From Candidatus Aminicenantes bacterium (lineage in GTDB: Bacteria; Acidobacteriota; Aminicenantia; Aminicenantales; UBA4085), in the NCBI GenBank assembly GCA_022866045.1, contig JALHTW010000049.1, positions 11,041 through 75,040 of the forward strand: a stretch of DNA of 64,000 nucleotides, given 5' to 3'. Under the pieces are notes generated by a model that searched no databases, was not told the origin of the DNA, and saw only the letters and a program-made list of their open reading frames with translations. Numbering within the stretch: position 1 is the first letter of the stretch; each line of letters opens with the position of its first letter. Position numbers and translations under genes: made by a program. Below, piece after piece: positions 7,144-60,875 of this stretch.

Positions 7144-7164
7144 TGAGGACCGCATTCTCGAGAG

Positions 7165-8397: not shown

Positions 8398-9296
8398 ACG
8401 AAAAGATGATTCCTCCAAAAAAATTGGGAAGATACTATAAAGCGTTCGCCGACAAACTCTCGCCGAAAACCCTTGATGAAAACGGAGTTCCTCTTTTGCC
8501 CTTTGGGCCTCCTCTGGGACCTCAATATTCTCCCGTCCTGGTTTCTCAGTATGCCCTGGGGCTTTTCAATCGATACATCGAGAAAGGAAGAGAGGAAGAC
8601 CGTGAGTCCTTTCTTGCTCTGGCCGACTGGTTCGTCCGGTCTGCGGTCCGGAGGAACGATTTCTTGGTTTGGGAATACAGATACGACCTCTGGAAATATA
8701 ACGCCCGAGCGCCCTGGATTTCGGGGATGGCCCAGGGGGAAGCCCTGTCCGTGCTGCTGAGGGCTTATGAATTGACGGAGCAGGATGTCTATCGGGACGC
8801 GGCGACCCAGTCTCTCGGGAGCTTCGAGCATGAGATCGAGAAAAGGGGCGTCCGCTCTCGGGACCGGCAAGGCCGAGTTTTCTACGAAGAAGTCGCCGCC
8901 GATCCGCCGGCTCACATTCTCAACGGCTTCATCTCGGCCTTGTGGGGATTGGAGGAGTATCACCGAGTCTTTAATGACTCGAGAAGCTTGAGCTTGTTCA
9001 ATGCGGGGATTCAGACTCTCAACGAACGGCTTGCCGATTACGACAATGGCTATTGGACCCGTTACTCTCTTTTTTATCCGAATCAAATCGCTTCGACGCA
9101 CTATCATCGAGTTCACATTCTTCAGATGGGAACCCTTTTTGCCATCACCGGTCAGGAGGTCTTTGGGGAATGGGCAGAGCGATGGCGGCGTTATCAGCAT
9201 AACGTCTTCAGCCGCATGAAGCAGGCGGTCGCCTATCGTTGGTTCCGCCTCTTCTATCTTATCCGGAGACTCCGGACGTTCCTCTCTTTATCCTGA
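8394..9296 (+). CDS. D-glucuronyl C5-epimerase C-terminal-domain-like protein
   Basis: Motifs VLVSQYALGLF and APWISGMAQGEALSVLLRAY resemble the PF06662 family. ATGA overlap with the upstream GT4. Confidence 0.4.
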   Translation: MNEKMIPPKKLGRYYKAFADKLSPKTLDENGVPLLPFGPPLGPQYSPVLVSQYALGLFNRYIEKGREEDRESFLALADWFVRSAVRRNDFLVWEYRYDLWKYNARAPWISGMAQGEALSVLLRAYELTEQDVYRDAATQSLGSFEHEIEKRGVRSRDRQGRVFYEEVAADPPAHILNGFISALWGLEEYHRVFNDSRSLSLFNAGIQTLNERLADYDNGYWTRYSLFYPNQIASTHYHRVHILQMGTLFAITGQEVFGEWAERWRRYQHNVFSRMKQAVAYRWFRLFYLIRRLRTFLSLS

Positions 9297-9305
9297 GATC
9301 GACCC

Positions 9306-10307
9306 ATGCGAGTGCTCGCGCTTGCCGACCTTCCCTCGGAAGGGACACACGTCGAAGGCATCTTCATCCAAAGGCAAATCGAATCCCTTCGCCGGCTGGG
9401 TGTTCAGGTCGATGTCATGTCTATCGGAGGGAAGAAGAATTCGTTGAATTACGTTCGATTGATTGGTAGACTATTGCACCGGAAAATTCCGCGAGGTTTC
9501 GACCTCGTTCATGCGCATTACGGCCTGACCGGATTTTTCGCCCGTTTTCAGCGGAAGCTGCCCTTGGTCGTGACATATCGCGGGTCTGATGTTTTCGGTA
9601 TTGTGGGCTCGAATTTCCAATATACTCTGAAAGGACGAATCATTGTCATGTTGAGCCTGAGAGCGGCCCGTTGGGCCGACGGCGTCATCGCCGTCTCCCG
9701 GAAAATCTCCGAGAGAATTCCGGCGAGAGTTCCGGTTCACATCATTCCCTCGGGCGTGGACCTTGACCGGTTCCGGCCTATGTCCAGGCAGGAAACGAGA
9801 GAAATCCTGGGGCTCCCGGGAGAAGGTCGTCTCGTCCTCTTCGCCGCCAATCCCCGGGAACCGCATAAGCGATTTGACCTGGCTCAGGACGCTGTAAACC
9901 GGCTTCGCGGGCAAGGCCTGGATGATGTGAAATTGATCGTCCCCTATCCCGTCCCCCCAGACCGGATGCCCCTTTACATGAATGCCTGTAACGTTCTCCT
10001 TCTCACGTCTCTCCATGAAGGGTCTCCAAACGTCGTCAAAGAAGCCCTGGCCTGCAATCTTCCCGTCGTCTCCACGGCCGTGGGAGACGTTCCGGAGCTG
10101 CTGGCGGGCCTCGAAGGCTGTTTTTTGTGCGGTTTTTCGGCCGAAGAAATCGCTGCCAGACTGAGACTGGCCCTTGAAGCCGGAGCGCTCTCCGGGGGGA
10201 GAGCCAAAATGGAACAGATCAGCACTTCCAAGACCGCGGAACAGGTCCTCGAGGTATATCGGGAAACTCTGCAGAGGTGGGAAAAGCGGCGGAGGATAGC
10301 ATCATGA
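9306..10307 (+). CDS. glycosyltransferase family 4
   Basis: GT-B two-domain architecture with C-terminal EGSPNVVKEALACNLPVVST (E-x7-E-like motif). Confidence 0.7.
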   Translation: MRVLALADLPSEGTHVEGIFIQRQIESLRRLGVQVDVMSIGGKKNSLNYVRLIGRLLHRKIPRGFDLVHAHYGLTGFFARFQRKLPLVVTYRGSDVFGIVGSNFQYTLKGRIIVMLSLRAARWADGVIAVSRKISERIPARVPVHIIPSGVDLDRFRPMSRQETREILGLPGEGRLVLFAANPREPHKRFDLAQDAVNRLRGQGLDDVKLIVPYPVPPDRMPLYMNACNVLLLTSLHEGSPNVVKEALACNLPVVSTAVGDVPELLAGLEGCFLCGFSAEEIAARLRLALEAGALSGGRAKMEQISTSKTAEQVLEVYRETLQRWEKRRRIAS

Positions 10308-11359
10308 AGCTTGTCTCCGTCGTAGGGACTCGTCCGAACTTCATTAAAGAGGTGCTGATCAACCGCAGGCTGAAAGCCCTGGGGGTTCATGAGGTCCTCG
10401 TACACACGGGCCAGCATTACGACCAGGCCATGTCCACGGACTTCTTCGATCAACTGGAGATCCCAACCCCGGATTATCTATTTAAAGTCCCCACGGATAG
10501 CGCTGCAAAACAAACGGCCGTCATCCTTATTAAAGTCGAGGACATTCTGCTGAAAGAAAAACCGGATGTGACGCTCGTCTATGGAGACGTCACGTCCACG
10601 CTGGCCGGGGCCCTCGCTTCGGCCCGGCTTCGCATTCCGGTGGCCCACGTCGAAGCCGGGATCAGAACGGAAGCCAGGCACAATCCGGAAGAAATAAACC
10701 GCCGGCTGACCGACCATCTTTCCTCCCTCCTGATGACGAATACCGAAGACGCCACCGCGGCCCTCCTGAAGGAAGGATTCTCTCCGTCGGATGTCGTCCA
10801 GACTGGGGATGTGATGCAGGATATCCTGATGCAGACGATCGACCGCATGAAACTGCAAATCCGCCGCGGCGACTATCATCTGGCCACCGTCCACAGGGCC
10901 GAAAACGTGGATGATCCGGTTCGCCTCAAAGAGATCGTGGAAGGCTTTATCAACTCGGGGGAGCGCATCCTGTTTCCCGTTCATCCCCGGACGAAAAAGC
11001 GTCTGGTCGAATTCGGGCTGATGGAAAGGCTCAAGAAAAGCGGAAACGTTAAAATCCTGCCGCCACTTGGATACAAAGAGTTCGTCCCCCTTTTGGCGGA
11101 AGCGGATAAGGTCCTGACGGATTCCGGGGGGGTGAGAAGAGAGGCCTACATTCTCGGGAAGCCCGTTATCGTCCTGATCGAGATCACCTGGTTCCCGGCC
11201 ATCGCCGACTGCGGATGGAAGAAGATCGCCGGCGCGAACCGGGCGGCCATCGTGGACGCCATCAGGAACTTTGTTCCTCCCGCCGAGCACCCGTCCCTCT
11301 TTGGGGACGGCCTGGCCCACGAGCACATCGTGGACGCCATCATCTCGAGATTTTCCTGA
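10304..11359 (+). CDS. wecB: UDP-N-acetylglucosamine 2-epimerase (non-hydrolysing), WecB/MnaA family
   Basis: MKLVSVVGTRPNFIKE...VHTGQHYDQAMSTDFFDQLEIPTPDYLFKV is the canonical WecB N-terminus. ATGA overlap with the upstream GT. Confidence 0.8.
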   Translation: MKLVSVVGTRPNFIKEVLINRRLKALGVHEVLVHTGQHYDQAMSTDFFDQLEIPTPDYLFKVPTDSAAKQTAVILIKVEDILLKEKPDVTLVYGDVTSTLAGALASARLRIPVAHVEAGIRTEARHNPEEINRRLTDHLSSLLMTNTEDATAALLKEGFSPSDVVQTGDVMQDILMQTIDRMKLQIRRGDYHLATVHRAENVDDPVRLKEIVEGFINSGERILFPVHPRTKKRLVEFGLMERLKKSGNVKILPPLGYKEFVPLLAEADKVLTDSGGVRREAYILGKPVIVLIEITWFPAIADCGWKKIAGANRAAIVDAIRNFVPPAEHPSLFGDGLAHEHIVDAIISRFS

Positions 11360-11366
11360 AGTCAAA

Positions 11367-12566
11367 ATGATCAAGGGCAAAATGAGAGTCTTGATGATCG
11401 TCCAGTCTATTTATCTCAACGACCCGCGGGTCCGCCGGGAGGCGGAGCTTCTGGCCAGGGAGGGCTGTCGGGTCGACGTCGTCTCTTTGAGAAACGAGCA
11501 GGAACCGTTCCTTCGCATCGTCAATAATGTGCGCATATATGGGATAAAACTGGGCCGGAGGTATGGAAGCAAATTCCGCTATCTCTATGAGTATGCCGCT
11601 TTTCAGGTCCTGGCCGCGTTCCTGACCGTGCGGCTGACCCTGGTCCATCGCTACGACCTGGTTCAGATCCACAACCTGCCCGATACCCTGATCTTTTGCG
11701 CCCTTTTTCCGAAGCTCCTCGGCGCCAAAGCGGTTTTTGACGCGCATGAAGCGATGCCGGAATCCCTCAGGATTAAATACGGGCTGAGCGAGGAAAGCCG
11801 GACCACGCGCTGCCTCAAGATCCTTGAACGTTTCTGCATGTCCCTGGCCGATCACGTCTTGACGATCCATGAGCCCATCCGCCAGCTCTTTATCTCCCGG
11901 GGGATACCCGCGGGGAAAATCTCCGTGGTGATGAATCTGCCTGACCCGGGACTTTTTCGTCCTCTTTGCGACAAGCCGGCGGAACGGCCGCTCCGGACGG
12001 AATTCGCCCTGATCTACGCGGGAACGATTGCCGAGCGATACGGCCTGCAGACCGCCATCAAAGCCCTTCCTCTGTTGCGCGCGGACATCCCGGGAATTCG
12101 TTTCCAAGTCTACGGCAAGGGCGATTTCCAGGCTCCGCTGGAGCGCCTGGCCGTTGAGCTGGACGTCAGAGACCGCGTTTTTTTCAAGTCCCCCGTTCCT
12201 CACTCGGACATGGCCGCTGTCTACGGTTCCGCCGACATAGGCATTTCGCCGCACGAGAACGATCTCTTCGGAGACATCTATTTCTCGACCAAGGTCGCGG
12301 AATACATGGCCTGCGGATTGCCCGTCATCGTCTCCCGGACGCGCGTCATGAATCATTATTACACCGACTCTCAAGTTGCCTTTTTTTCCCCGGGTGATTA
12401 TAATGACTTTGCTAAACGCGTCTTTGACATTTATCTGAATCCCGTTTACCGGCGTCAGCTCATTCAGAACGGCTTGAAATTGTGCGAGGAGTGGAGTTGG
12501 GCTCAAGAAGGCCGGAACTATATAGATGCGCTTGGCAAGTTCGGTCGACGGAGGCTTTTGTCATGA
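11367..12566 (+). CDS. glycosyltransferase family 4
   Basis: RVLMIVQSIYLNDPRVRREAELLAREGCRVDVVS N-domain; C-terminal GT1/4 domain with STKVAEYMACGLPVIVS. Confidence 0.7.
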   Translation: MIKGKMRVLMIVQSIYLNDPRVRREAELLAREGCRVDVVSLRNEQEPFLRIVNNVRIYGIKLGRRYGSKFRYLYEYAAFQVLAAFLTVRLTLVHRYDLVQIHNLPDTLIFCALFPKLLGAKAVFDAHEAMPESLRIKYGLSEESRTTRCLKILERFCMSLADHVLTIHEPIRQLFISRGIPAGKISVVMNLPDPGLFRPLCDKPAERPLRTEFALIYAGTIAERYGLQTAIKALPLLRADIPGIRFQVYGKGDFQAPLERLAVELDVRDRVFFKSPVPHSDMAAVYGSADIGISPHENDLFGDIYFSTKVAEYMACGLPVIVSRTRVMNHYYTDSQVAFFSPGDYNDFAKRVFDIYLNPVYRRQLIQNGLKLCEEWSWAQEGRNYIDALGKFGRRRLLS

Positions 12567-13618
12567 CGTCGAGTTCATCCCCGGACGGAATGTTGCGGAT
12601 CGCTCAAATCGGCTGCGGATACTGGGGGATCAATCTTCTGCGGTGCTTTCTCCAAAATCCTCGGGTGAGCCTCGTCGGAGTTGCCGAGCTGAGTCAGAAG
12701 AGGATCGGTGACCTGGCCAAACGATATCCGGCCATTCCTGCCACATCCGAACATAGAGAACTGATCAACGGACCGGCCGATGCGGTCGTTATTGCCACTC
12801 CGGCCGCCAACCATTTCGAGCTCGCGAAAGAATGCCTGCTCAAGGACAAGCATGTGTTCGTCGAAAAACCCATCGCTCTCAATGTCCGCGATGCCGAAGA
12901 GCTCGTACGCCTCGCCGAAGGCCGGAACTTGAGGTTGATGGTCGGCCATACCTTCGAGTACAACGCAGCGGTGAGGATGTTGCGCAACTATTTAGAAAAA
13001 GGCGAAGTGGGGGAGGTTTATTATCTCTATGGCGCCAGGTTGAACCTGGGGCGCGTTCAATCAGACATCAATGCCATGTGGAGCCTGGCCCCCCACGATC
13101 TGTCCATCCTCCTTTATATCCTCCAGAAGATGCCCGTTGCCGTCGCGGCCAGGGGCTTTTCGTTTTTGCAGCCCGGGATCGAGGATATCGTCTTCATGAT
13201 CCTGGATTTTCCCGGCGACGTTCATGCTCATATCCACGTGAGCTGGCTCGATCCCAATAAAGCACGGCTTTTGACAGTGGTGGGAAGCGAAAAAATGATC
13301 GTCTATGACGACACCAGCCTCGACGCCAAGATCCGCATTTTCGACAAGGGGATCACCCGGAACGCCGTCGATCAATCTCTGGGCGAATACGATTCCTTCG
13401 AGAAATTCCAGTTGATCCTCCGGGCCGGAGATGTCGCCGTGCCACATTTTATCTTTCCCGAACCCCTTCAGGTGGAGTGCGATCATTTCGTGGAGTGCAT
13501 CGAGAAACGACAGACCCCCTTGACCGACGGCAGGGACGGGCTTCATGTGGTGAATATCTTGGAAGCCGCCCAGCAATCCTTGAAAAGCGGCGGCGAGAAA
13601 GTGAATATTCCATGGTGA
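12563..13618 (+). CDS. Gfo/Idh/MocA-family NAD-dependent sugar dehydrogenase (WbpB-like UDP-GlcNAcA 3-dehydrogenase candidate)
   Basis: IAQIGCGYWGINLL Rossmann motif and EKP catalytic region. ATGA overlaps at both ends, and it is followed by acetyltransferase and aminotransferase genes. Confidence 0.7.
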   Translation: MTSSSSPDGMLRIAQIGCGYWGINLLRCFLQNPRVSLVGVAELSQKRIGDLAKRYPAIPATSEHRELINGPADAVVIATPAANHFELAKECLLKDKHVFVEKPIALNVRDAEELVRLAEGRNLRLMVGHTFEYNAAVRMLRNYLEKGEVGEVYYLYGARLNLGRVQSDINAMWSLAPHDLSILLYILQKMPVAVAARGFSFLQPGIEDIVFMILDFPGDVHAHIHVSWLDPNKARLLTVVGSEKMIVYDDTSLDAKIRIFDKGITRNAVDQSLGEYDSFEKFQLILRAGDVAVPHFIFPEPLQVECDHFVECIEKRQTPLTDGRDGLHVVNILEAAQQSLKSGGEKVNIPW

Positions 13619-14283
13619 ATCAACAAAGCCGGGAGAATCCTCTTTCGAGAATCTATCCCCGGGTCCGGCTGGGAGACAAGTCCCAGATCGGCGACTTCTG
13701 CGTCATCGGCCTCCCCGCCGGCGGCCATCAACCCGGGGAAGTGGAAACCATCATCGGCGACGACGCCATCATCCGCTCGCACACCGTTATATATGCCGGA
13801 AACAGGATCGGCTCCGGGTTCCGCGCGGGACACGGCGTCCTCATCCGCGAGGACAACCAGATCGGTCATAACTGCAGCATCGGCTCTCACACGGTGATCG
13901 AGCATCACCTCCAAATCGGGAACGGTGTGCGCATCCATTCCCAAGCGTTCGTCCCGGAATTCACGATCCTGGAAGACGGGTGCTGGATCGGTCCGAACGT
14001 CGTTTTCACCAATGCCTATCATCCCTTGTGCCCGAAAGTTAAGCAATGCCTCAAAGGAGCCACGGTCAAGCGGGGAGCCAAGGTCGGCGCCAATGCGACG
14101 ATTCTGCCCGATTTGGAGATCGGGGAGTTCGCCCTTGTCGGCGCCGGCGCCGTAGTCATTGGCAATGTGCCCGCTTACTCCGTTGTTGCGGGCAATCCGG
14201 CCAAGGTCGTCAAGAAGATCGCCGATCTGACCTGCCCCTACGACTTGATCGATCATCCCTATCCCATGAAACCGGAGAAATAA
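13613..14283 (+). CDS. left-handed beta-helix hexapeptide-repeat N-acetyltransferase (WbpD-like)
   Basis: Repeated [LIV]G-x-x-x-x hexapeptide units, for example [22 protein letters not shown] and IGPNVVFTN. Confidence 0.7.
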
Positions 14284-15395
14284 TGATGAACATCCCCCTC
14301 AACGATCTGAAAGCCCAGTATCTCACGATCAAAGATGAAATCGACGCCGCCATGAACGAGGTGATACTGAATTGTTCTTTTGTCGGCGGGAAAACCCTCG
14401 AAGCCTTTGAGCGAAGCTTCGCGGAATTTTGCGAGGTCCCTTACGCCGTGGGCGTCGGCAACGGGACGGACGCTCTCCAGCTCGCCCTCATGGCCTGCGG
14501 CGTGGGACCGGGCTCGGAAGTCATCACGGTCTCTCACACCTTTACCGCCACCGCCGAGGCCGTTGTCAACGTCGGAGCCAGGCCCGTGTTCGTCGATGTG
14601 GACGACTCCTATACCATGAACGTTGACCAGGCCGCGCGCCATATTACCCCGAGAACGAAGGCCATCCTTCCCGTCCATCTTTATGGACAGCCCGCCGACA
14701 TGGAACCCCTGATCGGCCTGGCCAAAAAAAACGGATTGGTCGTCATCGAAGACGCCGCCCAGGCCCACGGAGCCCGCTACAAGGGAAAAAGAGTCGGCTC
14801 CCTGGGTGATGCGGCCTGCTTTAGCTTTTATCCGGGCAAGAACTTGGGCGCCTATGGAGACGGCGGGGCCGTCGTGACGAACAACCAGGAAATTGCCCAA
14901 AGTGTCCGCATGCTGCGAGATCACGGGCGAACGCAAAAATATATCCACAAGAAAACCGGCTTTAACAGCCGCTTGGATACGCTTCAAGCCGCCATCCTCC
15001 GGGTGAAGCTCGGCCACCTTGAGGAATGGAATAAGCTTCGCCGGACGCATGCGGCCCTCTACAGCCGGCTTCTCTCCAAGATCCCGAATGTCGCGCTCCC
15101 TCCGAACTCCCCAGATACGGAACATGTTTATCACCTGTATGTGATTAGAATCCCCGACCGGGACAAAATTCAGGCAGCCCTTAAGTCGGCCGGAATCCAA
15201 ACGGGGATTCACTATCCGCTCCCCCTGCACGAACAGCCCGCCTACGCTTTCTTGGGTTATCGACCCGATGACCTTCCCCATACCCATGCCGTCGCTTCGG
15301 AGATCCTATCCCTGCCCATGTATTCGGAACTCGCGGAAGATCAGGTTCATCATATCGTCGCCGCCTTGAAGCAAAACCTCCCCGCAACCAGCTAG
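14284..15395 (+). CDS. DegT/DnrJ/EryC1/StrS PLP-dependent sugar aminotransferase (WbpE-like)
   Basis: [13 protein letters not shown]..., [44 protein letters not shown] (PLP-lysine region), [12 protein letters not shown]. Confidence 0.85.
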
Positions 15396-15456
15396 ACGGT
15401 TGTCGACAAGTCACGTTCCTGTATTGCCATGAAGGATTAAATCGATTTTTACGCCC

Positions 15457-16896
15457 GTGTTTAAAAAATATCCTTCGGTAAAGATTTATCTGGTGGCTTT
15501 TGATTTCGTTCTTCTGCTGCTTTCTCTGAGGGTCACTTTTATCCTGAGGTATCGGGTGCTGGAAGGACCCCTTCCTATCCCGAAGCTTGTCTTCGTCGTT
15601 TACGTCCTCCTCCTTCTCCCCTATGCCTTTATCTTTCGGCTGAACAATCTGTATAAACAGAGAATCTTCCTGAGCTCTTATGAGCAGATGCTGCAAATCG
15701 TTAAATCCCTGCTGTCCCTGCTGGGTCTTTATATCCTGGCCGTTTTCGGCCTTCGCAATCTCCTCATCGAGAAAAGCCGCGTCCTTCTTATCCTGTTCTT
15801 CATCATTGCCTTTTTCTTTTTGGCCCTGGGCCGCGTTTTCGTTTTCAGGAAGCTTTATAAAATCTTCAAGGGAAATGAAGCCCTGGACCTCAAAAGGCGC
15901 ATCATCGTCGTCGGCGCCGGTCAAGCCGGGACCGATCTCTTGACGAAAATCAAGGAAAGCCCGTATGAGGGGATCAAAATCCTGGGTTTCTTTGACGATG
16001 ACCCGGCAAAAAAGGGAAAGGAGATCCTGGGAGTGCCCGTTCTGGGGGCTATCCAAGACATGGATTACTATCTCCAGACGTTGAAGATATCCGTTGACGG
16101 GATCTATATTTGTATCAGCCTGATCGACCACCAAGCCCTCCTCGACCTGATTCAGCGGATCAAAGCCTACGGCTATCCCGTCTATCTGGATTCCCAGCCA
16201 TTCAAGGTGATCAATGACCGGATAAACGTCCACGAATTCGAATCGCTCCTTTCGGCCTCCGTCCATGGAGCTTCCAATGCCTTTTATACGGACTTCCTGA
16301 AGAGAATCATGGATGCCGTCTTCTCGGCTCTCTTCCTCCTGCTCCTCTCTCCGTTTTTTCTGGTCGTCTCGGTCTTGATCAAAATGACGTCCAAGGGAAC
16401 CGTGATTTACAAATCGCGGGTGGTCGGTAAAAACGAGAAACAGTTCACTTGGTACAAATTCAGAACCATGCGCGTGGGCCAAGATTCCGCGAAACACGAT
16501 ACTCTCATGTACGAATTGATCAAGAAAAAAAAGAAAGAGGGAACGCTGAAAATCAAGGACGACGAGCGAATCACCCGAGTGGGGAAGTTTTTGCGCAAGT
16601 TCAGCCTGGATGAACTGCCCCAGCTCGTCAACGTCCTCAAAGGACAAATGAGCCTTATCGGCCCACGGCCCTGTTCGCCGTACGAATTCAGTCTCTACGA
16701 AGAATGGCATAAAAAAAGATTCGCCGTTCTGCCGGGGATCACCGGTCTGTGGCAGGCCTTTGGCCGCAGTTATGTCGGATACGACGACATGATCATCATG
16801 GACGTTTATTACATCGAGAAAATGTCTTTCTGGCTCGATTTAAAAATCCTCTTCAAGACAGCCGAGGTCGTCCTCCTGGGAAAGGGAGCCTATTAA
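15457..16896 (+). CDS. polyprenyl-phosphate sugar phosphotransferase (initiating Bac_transf family, WbaP/EpsL-like)
   Basis: N-terminal TM helices, CoA-binding-like middle, then C-terminal SLIGPRP and ...YIEKMSFWLDLKIL signature. Confidence 0.85.
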   Translation: MFKKYPSVKIYLVAFDFVLLLLSLRVTFILRYRVLEGPLPIPKLVFVVYVLLLLPYAFIFRLNNLYKQRIFLSSYEQMLQIVKSLLSLLGLYILAVFGLRNLLIEKSRVLLILFFIIAFFFLALGRVFVFRKLYKIFKGNEALDLKRRIIVVGAGQAGTDLLTKIKESPYEGIKILGFFDDDPAKKGKEILGVPVLGAIQDMDYYLQTLKISVDGIYICISLIDHQALLDLIQRIKAYGYPVYLDSQPFKVINDRINVHEFESLLSASVHGASNAFYTDFLKRIMDAVFSALFLLLLSPFFLVVSVLIKMTSKGTVIYKSRVVGKNEKQFTWYKFRTMRVGQDSAKHDTLMYELIKKKKKEGTLKIKDDERITRVGKFLRKFSLDELPQLVNVLKGQMSLIGPRPCSPYEFSLYEEWHKKRFAVLPGITGLWQAFGRSYVGYDDMIIMDVYYIEKMSFWLDLKILFKTAEVVLLGKGAY

Positions 16897-16897
16897 G

Positions 16898-17873
16898 GAT
16901 GAATAAGATCAACGTCGGCGTCGTCGGGCTTGGCTGGTGGGGACCCAAGCTGGTTAAAAACTTTCGGAAGCATCCTCTGGTCGACAAAGTCTATGGCTGG
17001 GACATCTCCGAAAAGGCCGTTGAAAACGCCCTGAACTCGGGCCTCCTGTTTGAGCCCGTCCGTCGTCAGGACGATCTCTTCAGGGACGAAATCTCTTCAT
17101 TGATCATTGCCACTCCCCCAAAGACCCATTTCTCCTATGCTCAAGCAGCCCTGGAAAGGGGGAAACATGTCCTGGTGACAAAACCCCCCGTGGAAACGAA
17201 GGCGGAACTGGATTTGCTTGCCTCCCTCATCAAGGAAAAAAAATTGACCTTCATGGTCGATGCGACTTATGTCTTTAACCCTGGCCTGGAAAATATCGTT
17301 TCTTTGGCCCGGGAAAGGGGATTTCAAAATCTTAGGCTCCTGCGGATCGTCCGTTTCGGCGACGTCCTGCGGCTTCGCCATAAGAATCGCCTGGTCCAGA
17401 CGATGTTTGCCAACAAGGTCAATATCATCAAGGACCTTATCTTCCACGACCTCTCTGTTCTCTGCTCCTTATTTCCCGGCGACATCACCGTCGAATCTGT
17501 CGAAGAATTCCGCAATCTAGACGAAGAGTGCAGCGATTCGGCCGTCCTCATCCTTAGAGCCGAGAATATTCCAGTCCTCATCGAGTACAGTTGGATCTAC
17601 CCCGAGAGAAAATCCGAATATCAGTTTTATTACCATGATCATTTTTTAATCTTTGACGATTTCAGCCCGGGCGACAAAGTCTGGGAGTTCACTTATGACA
17701 ATCAGCAGAGACGGGCGTTCCCCGTCGAGAGCGCCGAACCCCTCTTCCGGGTCGTCGACCATTTTCTTTCCTGCATAGCGTCCGGAAAAGAGCCCCGGAC
17801 GGGGATTGAATTTGCCAAAAAAGTCATGGTCTCCACGGAGAAAATTAATCGAACCATGGAGAGGCGCCGATGA
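16898..17873 (+). CDS. Gfo/Idh/MocA-family oxidoreductase
   Basis: MNKINVGVVGLGWWG Rossmann start. First gene of a second dehydrogenase/aminotransferase/acetyltransferase module. Confidence 0.65.
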
Positions 17874-18982
17874 AAGTCCCATTTGTCGATCTGAAGGGCC
17901 AGTACCTCCGTCTTAAACCCGAGATCGACGCCGTTTTCGAAGACATCTTTGAACGTGCCGCGTTCATTTGCGGGAAATACGTCTCCGCTTTTGAGAAAGA
18001 GTACGCCAGGGCCCAGAAGGTGAATTTTTTCGTCGGCTTGAGCTCGGGGACTGATGCCGTTCATCTCATGCTCTGGGCTTCCGGCATCGGAGCGGGGGAC
18101 GAGGTCATCGTTCCCGTGAACACGTTCATCGCCACGGCCGAAGGGATTTCTCTCTGCGGCGCCACGCCGGTCTTCGTCGACAACGATCCCGAGACCTACA
18201 CCATCGACGTCCGTCAAATCGAGGACAGAATCACGCGAAAAACGGCGGCCATCCTCCCCGTCCATCTCTACGGGCAGCCGGCCGACATGGATCCCATCCT
18301 CGATCTGGCTTCCCGGCACGAGCTGGCCGTTTTCTAGGATGCCTGCCAGGCTCACTTGGCGGAATATAAGGGAAGGGCGGTAGGCGGTTTTGGACGGGCG
18401 GCGGCCTTCAGCTTTTTCCCCGGAAAAAATTTGGGGGCCTACGGTGAGGCCGGGGGGCTGGCGACGAGCGACGATGCCTTATATCAAAAAATTCTCCGCA
18501 TGAGAGGCCACGGCTCGGTGGAAAGGTACGTTCACGAGGTCGTCGGCCATAATTACCGGATGGAAGAGATTCAAGCGGCCGTCCTGCTCGTTAAGCTGAA
18601 ATACCTCGAAGAATGGACGCGCAAGCGAAGGGAGATTGCCGTTTTGTACAATTCCCTGTTGAACGACGTGGAGGGAATCGTCCTCCCCGTGGAAGCGAGC
18701 GGATCTCGTCATGTCTATCATCTCTACGTCGTCAGGGTCCGGAACGGGAAAAGAGACGGCTTGAAAGAGTTCCTAAAAAAGCAAGACATCGATACCGGGC
18801 TTCACTACCCTATCCCTATCCATCTGCAGAAAGCCTACGAGGATCTGGGCTACAAAAAAGGCAGTTTTCCGGTGGCGGAAGAGCAATCGTCCGAATGGCT
18901 GTCTTTGCCCCTTTATCCTGAGATGGAGAACGATAAAGTCGAATACGTCTGTGATAAAATCAGGAGTTTTTTCCATGCCTAA
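17870..18982 (+). pseudogene. DegT-family sugar aminotransferase interrupted by an in-frame TAG at 18335-18337
   Basis: ORFs 17870-18337 and 18356-18982 are in the same frame and together align to a full DegT protein. The stop falls in the conserved V-I-E-D-A motif (read here as V-F-*-D-A-C-Q-A-H), consistent with GAG to TAG. Confidence 0.6.
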
Positions 18983-19547
18983 GCCGGAGAACGTCTTCAT
19001 CCATCCCCAGGCTCTCGTGGAGAGCGAGAAGATCGGGCCCAAAACCCGGATCTGGGCTTTTGCCCATGTTTTGAAAGGCGCACGGATCGGCAGCAACGTC
19101 AATATCGGGGATCATTGTTTCATCGAAAACGACGTCGTCATCGGGAACAATGTGGTCATCAAAAACGGCATTTCCATCTGGGACGGGATCTCCATCGAGG
19201 ACGGAGCCTTTCTTGGCCCTAACGTCGTCTTGACCAATGAATTGTTACCTCGAGCCGGCTTCCCGAAGGGACTTGAGCGGACGGTCATAAGGAGGGGAGC
19301 CACTATCGGGGCCAACGCTACCATTATGACCGGAATCACGCTCGGCGAGCACTGCACCGTCGGCGCCGGCTCCGTGGTCACGAAGAACGTTATCCCCCAT
19401 GCTTTGATGTACGGAAATCCCGCCAGGCAGAAAGGCTGGGTATGTATCTGCGGATTGAAACTATCGTTTGATGAAAGGAATGCCGCCGTATGTTCCTGCC
19501 GGAGGGAATTCGTCCTCAAGAACGGCAAGGTCAAGCTGATCAAATAG
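18951..19547 (+). CDS. hexapeptide-repeat (LbH) acetyltransferase
   Basis: IGSNVNIGDHCFIENDVVIGNNVVIKNGISIWDG hexapeptide repeats. Confidence 0.7.
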   Translation: MIKSGVFSMPKPENVFIHPQALVESEKIGPKTRIWAFAHVLKGARIGSNVNIGDHCFIENDVVIGNNVVIKNGISIWDGISIEDGAFLGPNVVLTNELLPRAGFPKGLERTVIRRGATIGANATIMTGITLGEHCTVGAGSVVTKNVIPHALMYGNPARQKGWVCICGLKLSFDERNAAVCSCRREFVLKNGKVKLIK

Positions 19548-19560
19548 CGCGTCGTCGGAT

Positions 19561-20523
19561 ATGGAAAAGAAGATTCTGATTACCGGTGTAGCGGGTTTCA
19601 TCGGTTCCAACCTGGCTCTGTATCTGGCTCATGGCGGCCGGAGTGAGGAATCCCGGGAACATTTCGAGGTTATCGGAATTGATAATCTGAGCTATGGGTT
19701 AAGGGACAACGTCCCCCCTCAAGTGAATTTCCATGAACTGGATATCCGGAGCGAAGAGATTTTCGATCTTTTCCACGGCGTGGACACGGTCTTTCATCTT
19801 GCGGCGAAAAATTGCATCAGCGACTGCCAGCTCGATCCGGTGGAAACCGCGGACGTCAACGTCACGGGGACGGTGAACGTTTTCGAAGCGGCCCGGCGGG
19901 CGAAGATCAGAAAAATCGTCTATGCCGAGTCTTCGGCGTTGTATGAAGGAAGCCGTCTCTTCCCAACCCCCGAAGAGGAAAACAAGCCCGAGAGTTTCTA
20001 TGCGGTCAGTAAGCTTTCTTCCCGCTCCTTCGCTCAGGCGTACCGGCGGTATTATGGCATGACGTTCACGGCCCTTCGCTATTTCTGCGTATACGGGCCG
20101 GTTCAGGATTATCGCCGGACCATTCCCCCGGTGATGAGCGCCTTCATCATCAAGCTGCTCAAGGGCGAGCCGCCCATCATTTATGGAACGGGGACAAAGA
20201 GGCGAGACTTCGTCTATGTCGATGATGTAACTGAATTCCATCTTAAATGCCTCATCGATCCGAGGACGGATAACAAGACGTTCAATCTCGGCTCAGGGAC
20301 CAATCATTCTGTGCTCGAGATCTATGAGATCATCTCTGCGCTCCTGGGAAAAAGGATTGAGCCGCTCTTGAGGCCTGACTTGCCCGGTGAGGCCGAGGCC
20401 ACCCTGGCCGATATCTCCGAGGCCAGAAAATTGGGGTGGGCACCAAAAACTGATTTAAAAAGCGGCCTTCTCAAGGCCATCGAATATATCAAGGGCGAAA
20501 TGGAGAAAGGGAGAATCCCCTAA
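19561..20523 (+). CDS. NAD-dependent epimerase/dehydratase (extended SDR, GalE-like)
   Basis: ILITGVAGFIGSNL Rossmann motif and YAVSK (YxxxK) catalytic motif. Confidence 0.8.
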   Translation: MEKKILITGVAGFIGSNLALYLAHGGRSEESREHFEVIGIDNLSYGLRDNVPPQVNFHELDIRSEEIFDLFHGVDTVFHLAAKNCISDCQLDPVETADVNVTGTVNVFEAARRAKIRKIVYAESSALYEGSRLFPTPEEENKPESFYAVSKLSSRSFAQAYRRYYGMTFTALRYFCVYGPVQDYRRTIPPVMSAFIIKLLKGEPPIIYGTGTKRRDFVYVDDVTEFHLKCLIDPRTDNKTFNLGSGTNHSVLEIYEIISALLGKRIEPLLRPDLPGEAEATLADISEARKLGWAPKTDLKSGLLKAIEYIKGEMEKGRIP

Positions 20524-20525
20524 GC

Positions 20526-21260
20526 TTGCCGGGAGCCATAAAAGCCGTTGTTTTGGCCGCGGGAAAAGGGACGAGGCTCAAGCCCCTCACCGAAACCCTG
20601 CCCAAGGTGATGATTCCCGTGGCCGGGAAACCTGTCCTGGAGTACCATCTCGAACAACTGGCGGCGGCCGGCATCCGGGACGTTTTCATCAACCTCCATC
20701 ATCTGGCGGAGACAATCAAAGCTTATTTCGAGGATGGCCGTCGATGGGGAATCCGGATCACCTATTCTTATGAACCGGACATTCTGGGCACGGCCGGAGC
20801 CGTCAAGAATCTCGAGGACAAGCTGGGCGCAGCCCCGTTTTTAGTGGTTTATGGGGATAATTTCCTAAGCATGGACTACAAGGATTTTATCTCCTTTTCG
20901 GCATCCAGGGCCGGAATCGGAACCATAGGCGTTTTTGAAAAATCCGATGTGAGAGGAAGCGGGATTTTGTCCTTCGACAAGGATCACAGAGTCATCCGCT
21001 TCAAGGAAAAACCGAGGGAGGAGGAGATTTTCAGCCATTGGGTGAGTGCCGGCGTTTTCTATTTCCAAAAGTCCGTCATGGAGCATATTAAGCCCGGGAT
21101 TTCGGATTTCGGATTTAATGTCCTTCCCGAGTTGATCCACGACGGGGAAAAAATATTTGCGTATCCCTTGACAAACCCGGTCTGGGCCCTCGACGATCCT
21201 CAGCTCCTCCATGAGTTGAAAGCGCAGACAGAAAGAACGGGGGCAAAGGAAAAAAGATAA
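20526..21260 (+). CDS. hddC: sugar-1-phosphate nucleotidyltransferase (HddC-like D-glycero-alpha-D-manno-heptose-1-P guanylyltransferase candidate)
   Basis: AVVLAAGKGTRLKPLTETLPKVMIPVAGKPVLEY NTP-transferase motif. TTG start directly after the upstream stop. Adjacent to an HddA-like kinase. Confidence 0.6.
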   Translation: MPGAIKAVVLAAGKGTRLKPLTETLPKVMIPVAGKPVLEYHLEQLAAAGIRDVFINLHHLAETIKAYFEDGRRWGIRITYSYEPDILGTAGAVKNLEDKLGAAPFLVVYGDNFLSMDYKDFISFSASRAGIGTIGVFEKSDVRGSGILSFDKDHRVIRFKEKPREEEIFSHWVSAGVFYFQKSVMEHIKPGISDFGFNVLPELIHDGEKIFAYPLTNPVWALDDPQLLHELKAQTERTGAKEKR

Positions 21261-21295
21261 GGACGGCCTAAGTCGTTCCTTGTGGGAGAAGAAAT

Positions 21296-22297
21296 ATGAT
21301 CATCGTCAGAACTCCTTTCAGGATCACCCTCGGAGGCGGAGGAACAGACCTGCCCTCTTATTATTCCAAATTTGGAGGATTCATCTTTGCCGCCGGCATC
21401 AACAAATATATGTTCATCAGCGTGAACCGGCCCGTCGTCGACGATCTCGTGCGGGTCAAATATTCGAAATCGGAGATCGTCTCTCACCGGGACGAACTCC
21501 AACACGACATTGCCCGGGAAGCCATGAGAATGATGGAGATCGATAGGGCGTTGGAAATCGTTTCAATGGCCGATGTCCCGGCTGGAACGGGTCTGGGCTC
21601 TTCGAGCTGCTATGCCGTAGGGCTTCTCAATGCCTTGCACACGATGAAAAGGGATTACGTAACCCTTCAGCAGGTGGCTGAAGAGGCGTGCCACTTGGAA
21701 ATCGAGGTCCTGGGCAAGCCGATCGGGAAACAGGACCAGTACATGGCCGCCTTCGGGGGCCTGTCTGTGCTGGAGATCGGGAAGGACGGAAACGTCAAGG
21801 TGAGAAAGGCCAATATCTCCGAGACAACGATTGATGATCTCAACCAGAATCTGATCATATGGTATACAGGCACATCTCGCAGTGCCGACGAGATTCTCTC
21901 CGAACAAAGCCGGGGCGCTCAGGAGCAAAGAAAAGAAGTTCTGGAAAGCATGCATGACATCAAAGATATTGGCTACGAAATCCTTAAGGCCGTCGAAAGC
22001 GGCAATTTGACGGACGTCGGCTTGATGTTTGACCGCCACTGGCAATACAAAAAAAAGATCTCGGCCAAAATGTCAAACTCCCGCTTCGATCAGATCTATG
22101 AGGCCGCCAAAAAGAACGGAGCGCTGGGGGGCAAAATCCTGGGAGCTGGCGGAGGAGGATTCTTCCTGTTCTATGTCGAGGAACATCACGGTCGATTTCG
22201 GGAGAAAATGAAAGAGCTGGGCTTGAGGGAAATGCGCTACAGGTTTGAGTTCGAAGGAACAAAGGTATTGGCCAATTTCATGGACGGTGTCCGATGA
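21296..22297 (+). CDS. hddA: GHMP kinase, D-glycero-alpha-D-manno-heptose 7-phosphate kinase-like
   Basis: MIIVRTPFRITLGGGGTDLPSYY N-terminus and PAGTGLGSSSCYAVGL GHMP motif. Confidence 0.7.
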   Translation: MIIVRTPFRITLGGGGTDLPSYYSKFGGFIFAAGINKYMFISVNRPVVDDLVRVKYSKSEIVSHRDELQHDIAREAMRMMEIDRALEIVSMADVPAGTGLGSSSCYAVGLLNALHTMKRDYVTLQQVAEEACHLEIEVLGKPIGKQDQYMAAFGGLSVLEIGKDGNVKVRKANISETTIDDLNQNLIIWYTGTSRSADEILSEQSRGAQEQRKEVLESMHDIKDIGYEILKAVESGNLTDVGLMFDRHWQYKKKISAKMSNSRFDQIYEAAKKNGALGGKILGAGGGGFFLFYVEEHHGRFREKMKELGLREMRYRFEFEGTKVLANFMDGVR

Positions 22298-23157
22298 TTC
22301 ATCGTTTGAAACGTCTGGAAGGAAAGAACATCGTCATTACGGGAGGAAGTCTAGGGATCGGCTATGAGGTCGCCCTGAAGTGTGCGGAGAACGGGGCCAG
22401 GATCGCCATCGTCTCCCGGACGGAGAAAGATCTTCGGGCCGCTTGGGAAAAGCTTCGCAGCATGTCCCGGCAGGAACATCTCTGCCGGACCCTCAATGTC
22501 GGCGAAAAGGATCACGTCCGAGCATTTGCGGAAGAGATAAGGGCCGCCTGGGGCTCGGTCGACGGGCTGGTGAACTGCGCGGGAGTCCTTGGCCCGATCG
22601 GACGCATCAATGACATCGACATGGAGATGTTCGTCGAGGCCATCCGGATCAATCTGTTGGGCACGGCCTTCATGTGCCATTATTTCGTTCCTCTTATGAG
22701 GAATCGGGATGCCAGGATCGTCAATTACAGCGGCGGGGGAGCGACCGAATCCTTGCCCAACTATTCGGCCTACGCGGCAAGCAAGGCCGCCGTCGTCAGG
22801 CTGACGGAAAACCTGTCCAAGGAATTGTCCATCTGGGATATTGCGGTCAACGCCATCGCCCCCGGTTTTGTCGTGACCAGACTGCATCAGGAAACGCTCA
22901 AGGCCGGAGAAAAGGCGGGGCCTCTTTATTTGAAAAGGACAAAGGACCAGATCGGAAAAGGAGGCGTTCCTCCCGAGAAGGCGGCCGAACTGACTGTTTT
23001 CCTGCTTTCCGGGGAATCCCGAGGCATCACCGGAAAGCTCATCAGCGCACCCTGGGACCCTTGGCAGGAATCATCATTTCTAGAAAGGCTCAGGAAAGAA
23101 GAACACCTGGCCACTCTTCGTCGCATCGACGACAAGATATTCTTTGAAAAAAGATGA
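22294..23157 (+). CDS. short-chain dehydrogenase/reductase (classical SDR)
   Basis: ITGGSLGIGYEVAL (TGxxxGIG) and YSAYAASKAAV (YxxxK). Confidence 0.8.
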   Translation: MIHRLKRLEGKNIVITGGSLGIGYEVALKCAENGARIAIVSRTEKDLRAAWEKLRSMSRQEHLCRTLNVGEKDHVRAFAEEIRAAWGSVDGLVNCAGVLGPIGRINDIDMEMFVEAIRINLLGTAFMCHYFVPLMRNRDARIVNYSGGGATESLPNYSAYAASKAAVVRLTENLSKELSIWDIAVNAIAPGFVVTRLHQETLKAGEKAGPLYLKRTKDQIGKGGVPPEKAAELTVFLLSGESRGITGKLISAPWDPWQESSFLERLRKEEHLATLRRIDDKIFFEKR

Positions 23158-24224
23158 GTTCACAAGTGTCCTCCAGTCACGTATTCGGCGTCGGCGTCAT
23201 CGGCGCCGGCCTCATCGGGAACAAGCGGGCCGAGGCCGTCAGACAACTGGCCATGGGCCGGATTCTGGGAGTCGCGGATGTGGATCGGGAAAAAGCCTCG
23301 ACCTTTGCTGACAAGTTCGGCTGTCCCTCCTATTCCGATCCTCAAGAGCTCCTGAAAAGCAGGGACGTCGAGATCGTGATTGTCGCAACCGTTAACAAGT
23401 TCCTAGCTCCCCTCAGCTGTTCCGCTCTCGATCAGGGAAAACACGTTCTCTGTGAAAAACCCCTCGGCCGCAACGCCGATGAATCTCGAGAGATCGTGAC
23501 CTGCGCGGCTAGGAACAAGGTCGTGCTGAAGACGGGTTTCAATCACAGGCATCATCCTGCCGTCTGGAAGGCCAAACAGCTGGTGGACGAGGGCCGGCTC
23601 GGGCCCCTCTATTTCCTCCGCTGCTCTTATGGGCATGGCGGACGCTCGGGCTACGAAAAAGAATGGCGGGCCGATAAAGACCTCTGCGGAGGGGGAGAGC
23701 TGCTGGACCAAGGAGTTCATGTTGTTGACCTCTTCAGGTGGTTTGCGGGCGATTTTGAGGAAGTGTTCGGGGTCCTCCCCACGTATTATTGGGACATGAA
23801 GGTCGAGGATAACGCCTTCGCCGTCCTGAGAACGCCAAAGAAACAGACGGCCGTCATGCATACGAGTTGGACCCAATGGAAGAATAAATTCCGGTTTGAG
23901 ATTTTCGGGGAAAAGGGATATCTCGCCGTGGACGGCCTGGGCGGTAGCTATGGAATGGAGAAACTGGTCGTCGGGAAACGAAGAGTATCGGCCGAAAGCG
24001 GTCACCCAATATACCTCAGTGGCCCCCCCGATGAGGAGGTCATCGAATTCCCGGGCCCGGATATCTCATGGATGGAAGAATGGAAAGAATTTGTTCAAGC
24101 TATTGTGGGAAAAAGAGTTCCATGCGGGTCCGGATATGATGGTCTGATGGCCAACAGACTGATCGATGCGGTGTATCGATCGGCCAGGATCAACAGCCCG
24201 GTCAAGGTCGGGAATGAAGACTAG
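23154..24224 (+). CDS. Gfo/Idh/MocA-family oxidoreductase
   Basis: VGVIGAGLIGNKRAEAV Rossmann and EKP region. ATGA overlap with the upstream SDR. Confidence 0.65.
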   Translation: MSSQVSSSHVFGVGVIGAGLIGNKRAEAVRQLAMGRILGVADVDREKASTFADKFGCPSYSDPQELLKSRDVEIVIVATVNKFLAPLSCSALDQGKHVLCEKPLGRNADESREIVTCAARNKVVLKTGFNHRHHPAVWKAKQLVDEGRLGPLYFLRCSYGHGGRSGYEKEWRADKDLCGGGELLDQGVHVVDLFRWFAGDFEEVFGVLPTYYWDMKVEDNAFAVLRTPKKQTAVMHTSWTQWKNKFRFEIFGEKGYLAVDGLGGSYGMEKLVVGKRRVSAESGHPIYLSGPPDEEVIEFPGPDISWMEEWKEFVQAIVGKRVPCGSGYDGLMANRLIDAVYRSARINSPVKVGNED

Positions 24225-25413
24225 GATCGGTATCCTGACGGGCGGCGGCGACGTCCAGGCCCTCAACGCCGTTTTAGCGGCGGCTCAAAAAAAGGCCCAT
24301 TCTTTGGGCATCGAGCTTCTGGGATTCATCCGAGGATGGGAAGGCGTTCTGAAGGAAGAGTGGGTCGGCCTTTCCTCCCTTTCCTTTTCGCCCCGACTGG
24401 GCGGGACGGTCCTGAAATCCTCGCGCCTCAACTTCCAAAAGATTCCCAGGAGCCCGGAAATCGTCCTTGAGAAATTGGCCAAGAACCGCATCACGGGATT
24501 GATCGTCATCGGCGGTGAAGACACCCTGTCCAATGCCTTTTTGATCAAATCATTTCCCCTTGTCCTCATTTCAAAAACGATCGACAACGATGTTGGACAG
24601 ATCGGTCCCGGCGACAGAGAATTCAAAAAGGAAGAGGTCTTCAACTATTTCACCCTTGGCTTCCCCACGGCCGCCGGAAAAATCGTCTCTTTTGTCAGTT
24701 TGAAAGAAGGATTGAGGACGACCGCGTATTCCCATGAACGGATCATCGTCGTCGAATCCATGGGTATGCACGCGGGCTGGCTGGCCCTGGCCTCGGGTCT
24801 AGGGCATCCCGATTTCATCATCATCCCCGAATTTCCTCTTAATTATGATCTCTTGCTGGAGAAGGTAATCCGCGCCTATGAATCGCAGAGACACGTCATC
24901 ATCGTCGTGGCCGAAGGAGCCCGCTGGGAAGATGGGTCAAATGTGTACTCGGAGAAGGACGAGAGCGAGGAATTCGCCCATCCCCGTTTTGGAGGATCGG
25001 CCGCCGCTCTGAAAAAGAGGCTGAAGAATGATTTGTCTCCTTATTTTGATACGAGAAACGTTAATTCCGTCAATCCTTCCTATCTTTATCGGTCCGGAGC
25101 TCCCTGTCCGTTGGACCTCCGGTGGGCTCAAAGAATAGGAGAAAAGGCGGTCTCTCTTCTGGCCGGCCGGGCTCAAGAAAGTTCTTTTCTGGCGATCCAA
25201 AAGATCCCCTCGGGTTTCCGCCTGCAGATCGCGAGTCTCTCCCGGTTCGGGTCCATTGACGAACTGCACAGGTTTGTTGATAATAGGTTCTACGATCCCC
25301 GGGAATTCCGGATTACGGCGAAGGGCATGGCCTATTTGAAACCGATCGTCAAGGAAATTTCTCCGGATGATTCCTACGGGATCAGGAAGCCGGAACCGGC
25401 GCGGAAGGATTAA
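24215..25413 (+). CDS. phosphofructokinase-family sugar-phosphate kinase
   Basis: MKTRIGILTGGGDVQALNAVL and IGGEDTLSNA (PFK GGDGS-like) motifs. Context is heptose/sedoheptulose metabolism. Confidence 0.55.
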
Positions 25414-25420
25414 GAAAAGA

Positions 25421-26017
25421 ATGGATCATGTCGACACGTATCTCCTTGAGGTGAAAGAGATCATCGATAAAATCGATAAAAATCAAATTACAAAGATGAT
25501 TAGCCTGCTCCAAAAGGTCAGGGACGGAAAAGGAAGGGTTTTCTTTCTGGGAGTCGGGGGAGGAGCGGCCAACGCCTCCCATGCGGTGAACGACTTCCGG
25601 AAAATCTGCGGTTTCGAGGCTTATACCCCCCTGGATAATGTGGCCGAATTGACGGCCCGAACGAACGATGATGGGTGGGAGACCGTCTTCGTCCATTGGC
25701 TCCGGCAAAGCCGCCTCAATGAAAAGGACGCCCTCTTCATTTTCTCCGTGGGCGGGGGAAATTCGGAGAAGAACGTCAGCCGGAACCTGGTCCGGGCTAT
25801 CGACTTCGCAAAAAAAGCCGAAGCCAAGATCCTGGGGATCGTCGGCCGAGACGGAGGCTATACGGCCCAAAAGGCGGATGCCTGCATCGTTGTCCCCACC
25901 GTCAACCCCAAGGCCGTCACGCCGCACACGGACTCGTTCCAGTCCATCATCTGGCACATGATCGTCAGTCATCCGGAGATGAAGGCGTGTGAGATGAAAT
26001 GGGAATCCGTTAAATGA
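25421..26017 (+). CDS. gmhA: SIS-domain sedoheptulose-7-phosphate isomerase (GmhA-like)
   Basis: GRVFFLGVGGGAANASHAVNDF SIS motif, about 200 aa. Confidence 0.7.
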   Translation: MDHVDTYLLEVKEIIDKIDKNQITKMISLLQKVRDGKGRVFFLGVGGGAANASHAVNDFRKICGFEAYTPLDNVAELTARTNDDGWETVFVHWLRQSRLNEKDALFIFSVGGGNSEKNVSRNLVRAIDFAKKAEAKILGIVGRDGGYTAQKADACIVVPTVNPKAVTPHTDSFQSIIWHMIVSHPEMKACEMKWESVK

Positions 26018-26029
26018 TAGGAGAAGGGC

Positions 26030-26722
26030 ATGGCGATATTTCTTGATACCGGCAGGATCGAAGACGTCCAGAAATTCATGAATATGGGAATTATCCGAGG
26101 GGTGACGACAAACCCCTCGATTCTTCTGAAATCCGGCGTAACGGGAGGTCCGGCGGCCATCAAAAAAAGGTCCATCGAGATCGCCAACCTTATTAAGCCT
26201 TACCCGCTCTCCGTCGAAGTCACAACCAACGATCCCCCCCAAATGATCGAACAGGCAAAAGAATTTGCCGGCTGGGCCGAGAATATCAACGTCAAAATCA
26301 CCGTCCATGGCCCCCAGGGTGAGTTGGACAATTTCGAAGTCGCCCATCTGTTGGAAAAAAAATTCGATATCCGGGTGAATATGACGGCGATAATGAGCGC
26401 TCAGCAGTGCCTCTTGGGAGCCCTGGCCGGCGCCACATACGTCTCTCTTTTCGGGGGGAGAGTCAACAACATGGGCTACAACTGCGTCGAGGAAATCCGG
26501 AAAGCCCGGATCGTCCTGGATGATCAACAATTGAAGGCGAAAATCATCGTCGGATCGACCAGGGAAATCCTCAACGTCATCGAGTGGCTTGAGGCCGGAG
26601 CTCACATCGTAACCGTCGTGCCCGAACTCCTCCAGGGAATGATCGTCCATCCTTACAGCAAAGAAACGGTCCAGATGTTTCTGGACGACGCCAGAAAAGC
26701 TGAGGAAAAACTCAAGGCTTAG
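26030..26722 (+). CDS. transaldolase / fructose-6-phosphate aldolase family (TalC/Fsa)
   Basis: MAIFLDTGRIEDVQKFMNMGIIRGVTTNPSIL, about 230 aa. Can supply sedoheptulose 7-phosphate to the heptose branch. Confidence 0.75.
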   Translation: MAIFLDTGRIEDVQKFMNMGIIRGVTTNPSILLKSGVTGGPAAIKKRSIEIANLIKPYPLSVEVTTNDPPQMIEQAKEFAGWAENINVKITVHGPQGELDNFEVAHLLEKKFDIRVNMTAIMSAQQCLLGALAGATYVSLFGGRVNNMGYNCVEEIRKARIVLDDQQLKAKIIVGSTREILNVIEWLEAGAHIVTVVPELLQGMIVHPYSKETVQMFLDDARKAEEKLKA

Positions 26723-26783
26723 GGCATCTCCAGGCCTCGGCGACATTCCGAATCCCCTTTACTTTACTCCCAAGGGAACGCTT

Positions 26784-60698: not shown

Positions 60699-60875
60699 CC
60701 GGAGGATGAACTCCTTCCAGGCGAAAATCCCTCAAACTCTACTTCTCAGTCGGCCCAGAATAATCCCCCCGTTTTCCCTTGGGAAAGACGGATCCAGGGG
60801 GATTTGCCCTTTTATTGCGTCTTGTTTTCTGAACCTTTAAAATAACGATGAATCGGATCATAATAGGTCGTAATA

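Follow-up and report, generated by a model that had tools for sequence, protein, structure and literature searches.

A single G-to-T change places an in-frame TAG in a putative sugar C3-aminotransferase gene of a Candidatus Aminicenantes bacterium

An aminotransferase gene of the DegT/DnrJ/EryC1 family is interrupted by an in-frame TAG in the window, by which we mean the whole stretch of 64,000 nucleotides analysed here. The gene is a member of the PF01041 family by descent, and since the uninterrupted frame of a functional DegT protein is broken at codon 156 it is, as sequenced, a null allele. The interruption is a single-base nonsense lesion of an ordinary sort, in an enzyme family that is well known, and has no novelty of kind; it reflects either a recent knockout or a wrong base, and no new mode of decoding. 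Judging from the comparison with close relatives described below, the null allele is probably real and recent, and carried by the cells and not just by the assembly.

The interrupted gene

The gene, its parts and the neighbouring genes are listed in Table 1. The first-pass annotation had joined the two open reading frames 17870-18337 and 18356-18982 into one aminotransferase gene, and this is borne out by the PF01041 profile (DegT/DnrJ/EryC1/StrS; 360 positions), which runs contiguously over both, the N-terminal part covering profile positions 5-142 (E 6e-47) and the C-terminal part positions 145-360 of 360 (E 5e-67). Because the two parts join at 142/145, one codon has been hit and there is no frameshift. 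The annotation had also placed the break correctly, while the paralogous aminotransferase in module 1 starts at 14283 and not at 14284, and the module 2 dehydrogenase at 16899 and not at 16898.

Table 1 Features of the interrupted aminotransferase gene and of the two sugar modules in the window.
Feature	Position	Strand	Basis
Module 1 dehydrogenase	12563-13618	+	Pfam
Module 1 acetyltransferase	13612-14283	+	Pfam
Intact paralogous aminotransferase, module 1, with [10 protein letters not shown]	14283..15395	+	46% identity
Polyprenyl-phosphate glycosyl-phosphotransferase (Bac_transf), first gene of the block conserved in L002	15457..16896	+	TIGR03025, 382 bits against a cut-off of 295.55
GFO/IDH/MocA oxidoreductase, module 2, putative sugar 3-dehydrogenase; stop codon shares ATGA with the aminotransferase start codon	16899..17873	+	
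DegT/DnrJ/EryC1-family sugar aminotransferase gene, module 2, 370 codons with one in-frame TAG	17870..18982	+	Translation; PF01041 over both parts; 98% identity to intact P0001
N-terminal open reading frame, 155 aa if translated, lacking the PLP-binding Asp and the catalytic Lys	17870..18337	+	Translation, Pfam
Premature TAG, codon 156, from GAG (Glu) by G-to-T at 18335	18335..18337	+	GAG in L001 and L002
Remainder after the stop, 214 codons, untranslated; no decay	18338..18982	+	Invariant alignment columns; 14:1 synonymous:non-synonymous against L001
Mechanical open reading frame from TTG (codon 163), without Shine-Dalgarno sequence, Asp157 and Gln160; not a plausible gene	18356..18982	+	
Hexapeptide-repeat N-acetyltransferase, module 2; ATG inside the last aminotransferase codons with AGGAG just upstream; ends at TAG	18975..19547	+	

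Translation of 17870-18982 gives ELAVF*DACQAHLAEY around the stop, and in a pairwise alignment with the module 1 paralog the TAG falls on the Glu of [10 protein letters not shown]. Downstream of the stop the residues Asp157 (18338-18340), Gln160 and Lys186 (18425-18427) are all encoded in the window and occupy invariant columns among 18 aligned homologs; their roles, including those of PLP-binding Asp and Schiff-base Lys, we take to be the ones known from WbpE by homology. The unusual AHL, where AHG would be expected, is in the alignment a trait of the subfamily and not a sign of damage.

A six-frame scan of the window for single stops with 100 or more open codons to either side gave 25 cases, most of which are neighbouring genes sharing a frame, or non-coding frames. 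Among the genes annotated with Pfam, 18335-18337 was the sole case in which both sides belong to one family.

The ancestral codon and the age of the change

A homolog search with the aminotransferase returned an uninterrupted protein of 370 aa with 98% identity (P0001) and an uninterrupted homolog with 80% identity (P0002). The contig encoding P0001, called L001 and taken from the Logan assembly of SRR18214467, is colinear with positions 16883-19875 of the window at 97.6% nucleotide identity, gap-free over 2,993 bp. The codon corresponding to 18335-18337 is GAG in L001 and also in L002, the 80% relative that serves as outgroup. Since both carry GAG, the T at 18335 is derived and one G-to-T change suffices, so that the single GAG-to-TAG change proposed from the paralog alone is upheld by the ortholog comparison. 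The Glu of the motif VFEDACQAH is present in 18 of 18 aligned homologs, and at the same site across 163 related loci from genomes and metagenomes we found Glu in 161, Gln in one and Gly in one, with an in-frame stop in none of the 163. The earlier claim that the stop has replaced a conserved Glu was correct.

The rest of the gene is intact. Compared with L001, and with the stop left out, it has 19 synonymous and 6 non-synonymous codon changes, and only one of the non-synonymous changes lies 3' of the stop, next to 14 synonymous ones. This downstream ratio is tighter than in the flanking genes, where synonymous and non-synonymous changes number 13:11 in the dehydrogenase and 11:8 in the acetyltransferase. 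With no trace of relaxed selection, the change is either very recent or not real.

The allele was absent from other public assemblies in exact protein look-ups of both fragments and three neighbouring genes, in a search of genome and metagenome contigs with a 50-nt pattern carrying N at the variable base, and in a search with the N-terminal fragment. A protein-based scan of metagenome contigs for close alleles gave, among the matches listed, only relatives of at most 61% identity. The search with the N-terminal fragment also brought up many truncated N-terminal DegT fragments of 140-270 aa on long contigs of up to 767 kb (for example P0243, P0259, P0276, P0284 and P0289), and in one of them, P0243, a frameshift is visible in the sequence that follows. 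Public assemblies therefore commonly contain broken DegT genes as a background.

Genuine null allele or consensus error

If the allele is genuine, a very recent single G-to-T change at 18335 would have turned codon 156 from GAG (Glu) into TAG, and translation would halt after 155 residues, ahead of the PLP-anchoring Asp157 and the Schiff-base Lys186. Because the stop precedes both of these residues, the product would be inactive and the gene a null allele, or nascent pseudogene. The loss may be tolerated since surface-sugar genes can be dispensable, or through partial backup from the module 1 paralog, and it could even have been favoured by phage or predator pressure.

Point-mutation pseudogenes are known from O-antigen and capsule loci, the inactivated O-antigen cluster of Yersinia pestis being an example. 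The present case is alike in that a single nonsense change has struck a surface-polysaccharide gene whose neighbours are intact, but differs in showing one lesion with no further decay and in being known from an assembly consensus alone.

The strongest alternative is that the true gene has GAG and is functional, and that the T at 18335 arose as an artefact of sequencing, library preparation or assembly, or entered the consensus from a minority strain. We regard this as possible but less likely. An error would leave just such a gene, perfectly intact apart from the stop and with the pattern of purifying selection described above. The window is probably a metagenome-assembled contig from an uncultured lineage, and no other public assembly that was searched has a matching allele. 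Moreover, G-to-T is the classic error caused by oxidative damage (8-oxoG) in short-read libraries, and the base change at 18335 is the same. Unlike what is expected of such damage, however, the window has no cluster of G-to-T changes. It is 99.1% identical to L169, 98.4% to L170, 98.5% to L171 and 97.6% to L001, and transitions make up most of the differences. G>T and C>A are not in excess among them, with none of the 22 substitutions against L169 being of these types and only 3 G>T and 2 C>A among the 73 against L001. In the 64 kb, the stop scan together with the Pfam annotation revealed no second gene whose two halves belong to a single family. The assembly does not, therefore, appear to be generally error-prone, which favours a genuine allele in the dominant strain. 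In addition, a contig of at least 64 kb would usually have the coverage to outvote damage in a single read.

Annotators should mark the gene as a possible pseudogene or a low-quality site; it should not be entered as two genes or cited as evidence of an alternative code, and beyond annotation the case matters little. If the allele is real, the strain probably lacks, or has less of, one acetamido-sugar in its surface polysaccharide, which is the kind of change that alters recognition by phages or predators.

A second TAG at the same codon in another contig

In the search with the 155-aa fragment one protein, P0345, was 53% identical to the fragment, was itself 155 aa long and ended just before the ED motif. 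Its contig (L164; ENA ERZ27250193 k141_722404), which is unrelated to the window, has a TAG at exactly the same aminotransferase codon as the window, and the PGT gene next to it contains another in-frame TAG, while the L164 genes terminate with TGA and TAA. At first sight this could point to a recurrent or programmed TAG at this codon, but P0345 clusters with an intact protein of 368 aa that is present on 12 contigs, and in a comparison with the independent assemblies L165, L167 and L168 L164 differs at only 3 of 2,720 bases (1089, 2232 and 2278), all of them G>T on one strand. Two of the three are GAG-to-TAG changes, one in the PGT gene and one in the DegT aminotransferase. A recurrent or programmed TAG is rejected on these findings, since nothing but three same-strand G>T changes separates L164 from three intact assemblies and the PGT position under the second TAG is not conserved among homologs. 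The pattern in L164 points to oxidative damage, a low-coverage artefact or hypermutation, and not to recoding; that it matches the codon in the window can be ascribed to chance together with the screening of a very large database for products of 155 aa.

L164 bears on the window in two ways. It is a worked example of GAG-to-TAG changes of the artefact type reaching metagenome contigs, and to that extent it speaks for an error also at 18335; it contains the G>T cluster that the window lacks. Of practical value is the observation that clusters of same-strand G-to-T changes can create false GAG-to-TAG "pseudogenes" in metagenome contigs.

TAG as a stop codon in the window

If TAG were read as sense, whether by programmed read-through, by a suppressor tRNA, as pyrrolysine or under a reassigned code, a full-length enzyme would be made from the gene. 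We find this very improbable, and the same can be said of functional decoding of the TAG of any kind. What could suggest it is the otherwise perfect conservation of the gene around the stop, and the TAG at the corresponding codon of the P0345 gene, a homolog with 53% identity along the N-terminal 155 residues. The latter is accounted for by the three same-strand changes in L164, set against 12 intact contigs. TAG is a normal stop codon here. About 10 other long open reading frames in the window terminate at TAG. The acetyltransferase gene following the aminotransferase has a terminal TAG whose position is conserved in both L001 and L002, and in topA TAG follows after 756 residues and gives the same length as in orthologs of 97-99% identity. 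Genome-wide reassignment of TAG is rejected on account of these stops, and a nearby suppressor tRNA because the 64-kb window has no tRNA genes. The TAG at the site is found in no ortholog, the 120 nt from the TAG onward fold no better than shuffled sequence (z = -0.08), and the stretch 18338-18360 is identical in L001, which carries GAG.

The downstream part has no usable restart either, as the first in-frame start 3' of the stop is the TTG at codon 163, which has no ribosome-binding site and from which a product would lose Asp157 and Gln160. With TAG as a normal terminator, no structure and no restart, read-through, reassignment and a split enzyme are all unsupported, in agreement with the first-pass annotation, in which read-through had been the less likely reading.

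It is conceivable that the TAG is real but tolerated, either because weak natural read-through or suppression gives a trickle of full-length aminotransferase and tunes down the second diamino-sugar branch, or because phage pressure on the surface polysaccharide maintains a standing loss-of-function polymorphism in the Aminicenantes population, although we would give this little credence. That the N- and C-terminal fragments reassemble into a functional split enzyme, for which one could cite that both halves are intact and lie in the same operon, is so improbable as to be negligible, given the TTG without a ribosome-binding site, a fragment devoid of the two invariant residues, and no relative split in the same way among the 163 loci.

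The enzyme and its pathway

The structures closest to the intact ortholog P0001, all matching over the full length, are 7b0d (E 3e-113), QdtB (3frk, 3e-108) and DesV (2oga, 1e-91), followed by WbpE (3nu7/3nys) at about 1e-74, also full length. A motif IEDA(A/C)QAH is aligned in these matches. QdtB, DesV and WbpE are PLP-dependent nucleotide-sugar C3-aminotransferases of the DegT/DnrJ/EryC1 family, and the product of the interrupted gene is, by this homology, best explained as a PLP-dependent sugar C3-aminotransferase of the WbpE/QdtB type. It differs from the three in that the module 2 copy carries a premature stop.

WbpB, WbpE and WbpD catalyse steps in the synthesis of 2,3-diacetamido-sugars (PMC10622841). 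Module 2 resembles this set in that genes for a 3-dehydrogenase, a C3-aminotransferase and an N-acetyltransferase lie next to each other, with the GFO_IDH_MocA, DegT and Hexapep families in one overlapping operon. None of the three module 2 genes reached an NCBIfam equivalog cut-off, and a Pfam search of the window found no 6-dehydrogenase of the WbpA type (UDPG_MGDP_dh), whereas L002 has one. The substrate may be UDP-GlcNAc or its uronic acid. As to the other partner enzyme of the pathway, the 2-epimerase WbpI, a WecB-type 2-epimerase gene at 10277-11359 scored 266 bits against the TIGR00236 cut-off of 210.

Two modules of different history

The first-pass annotation had described the two modules as a tandem duplication of a whole three-gene unit, and this part of it did not stand. 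Between modules 1 and 2 the aminotransferases share 46% identity, the dehydrogenases 23% and the acetyltransferases 42% over 116 aa. The genes are arranged as dehydrogenase-acetyltransferase-aminotransferase in module 1 versus dehydrogenase-aminotransferase-acetyltransferase in module 2, and a phosphoglycosyl transferase gene lies in between. L002 is syntenic with positions 5809-8258 and 15446-23594 of the window. Between the two syntenic blocks L002 (2764-7489) has genes for a glycosyltransferase, a methyltransferase, a UDP-sugar 6-dehydrogenase and another glycosyltransferase, while the same interval in the window (8394-15395) holds a glucuronyl C5-epimerase-like gene, two glycosyltransferases, the 2-epimerase mentioned above and all of module 1. 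The synteny therefore places module 2 in the conserved portion of the locus, and module 1 in a variable cassette (about 8394-15395). A recent tandem duplication is not supported, given the low identities, the differing gene order and the lack of the module 1 cassette in L002; the two modules are old paralogs. Base composition, used as a test of a foreign origin for one module, was uninformative, with a GC content of 0.49-0.60 and no clear boundary.

The module 1 aminotransferase might back up the broken gene. The aminotransferases of both modules have the same set of closest structures, but the dehydrogenases that accompany them differ strongly.

Surroundings

The surrounding 50 kb form a polysaccharide/LPS region, with genes for glycosyltransferases, a flippase-like protein, Wzy_C proteins, Wzz, a GT9 heptosyltransferase and a Kdo-kinase family protein, after which dprA, topA and a tyrosine recombinase gene follow. 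Among named sequences, the best relatives of TopA come from Candidatus Aminicenantes.

Several further genes in the window deserve mention. At 8394-9296 (+) a gene with the C-terminal domain of D-glucuronyl C5-epimerase (PF06662, E 6e-46) is located inside this bacterial surface-polysaccharide cluster; the family is best known from the modification of heparan sulfate and heparosan. A third GFO/IDH/MocA oxidoreductase with complete N- and C-terminal domains at 23154-24224 (+) closes the block conserved in L002 and is followed by a phosphofructokinase-family gene at 24166-25413 (+). On the minus strand, at 25382-26746, there is an open reading frame of 454 aa without a Pfam match, lying opposite an open frame of 233 codons at 26021-26722 (+) that ends with TAG at 26720-26722; either strand may be the coding one.

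Further downstream, genes for a radical-SAM/SPASM protein (32478-33608), a 565-aa protein without a family match (34614-36311), an ABC exporter (36394-38214), a methyltransferase (38246-39526) and an NTP_transf_5 protein (39716-40963) stand in a row, all on the plus strand, and could constitute a cluster for peptide maturation and export within the polysaccharide region. Finally, the order dprA-topA-tyrosine recombinase (57327-61769) is conserved at 98.4% nucleotide identity in L170 (ENA contig ERZ27247880), and the species has thus been sampled in several public metagenomes.
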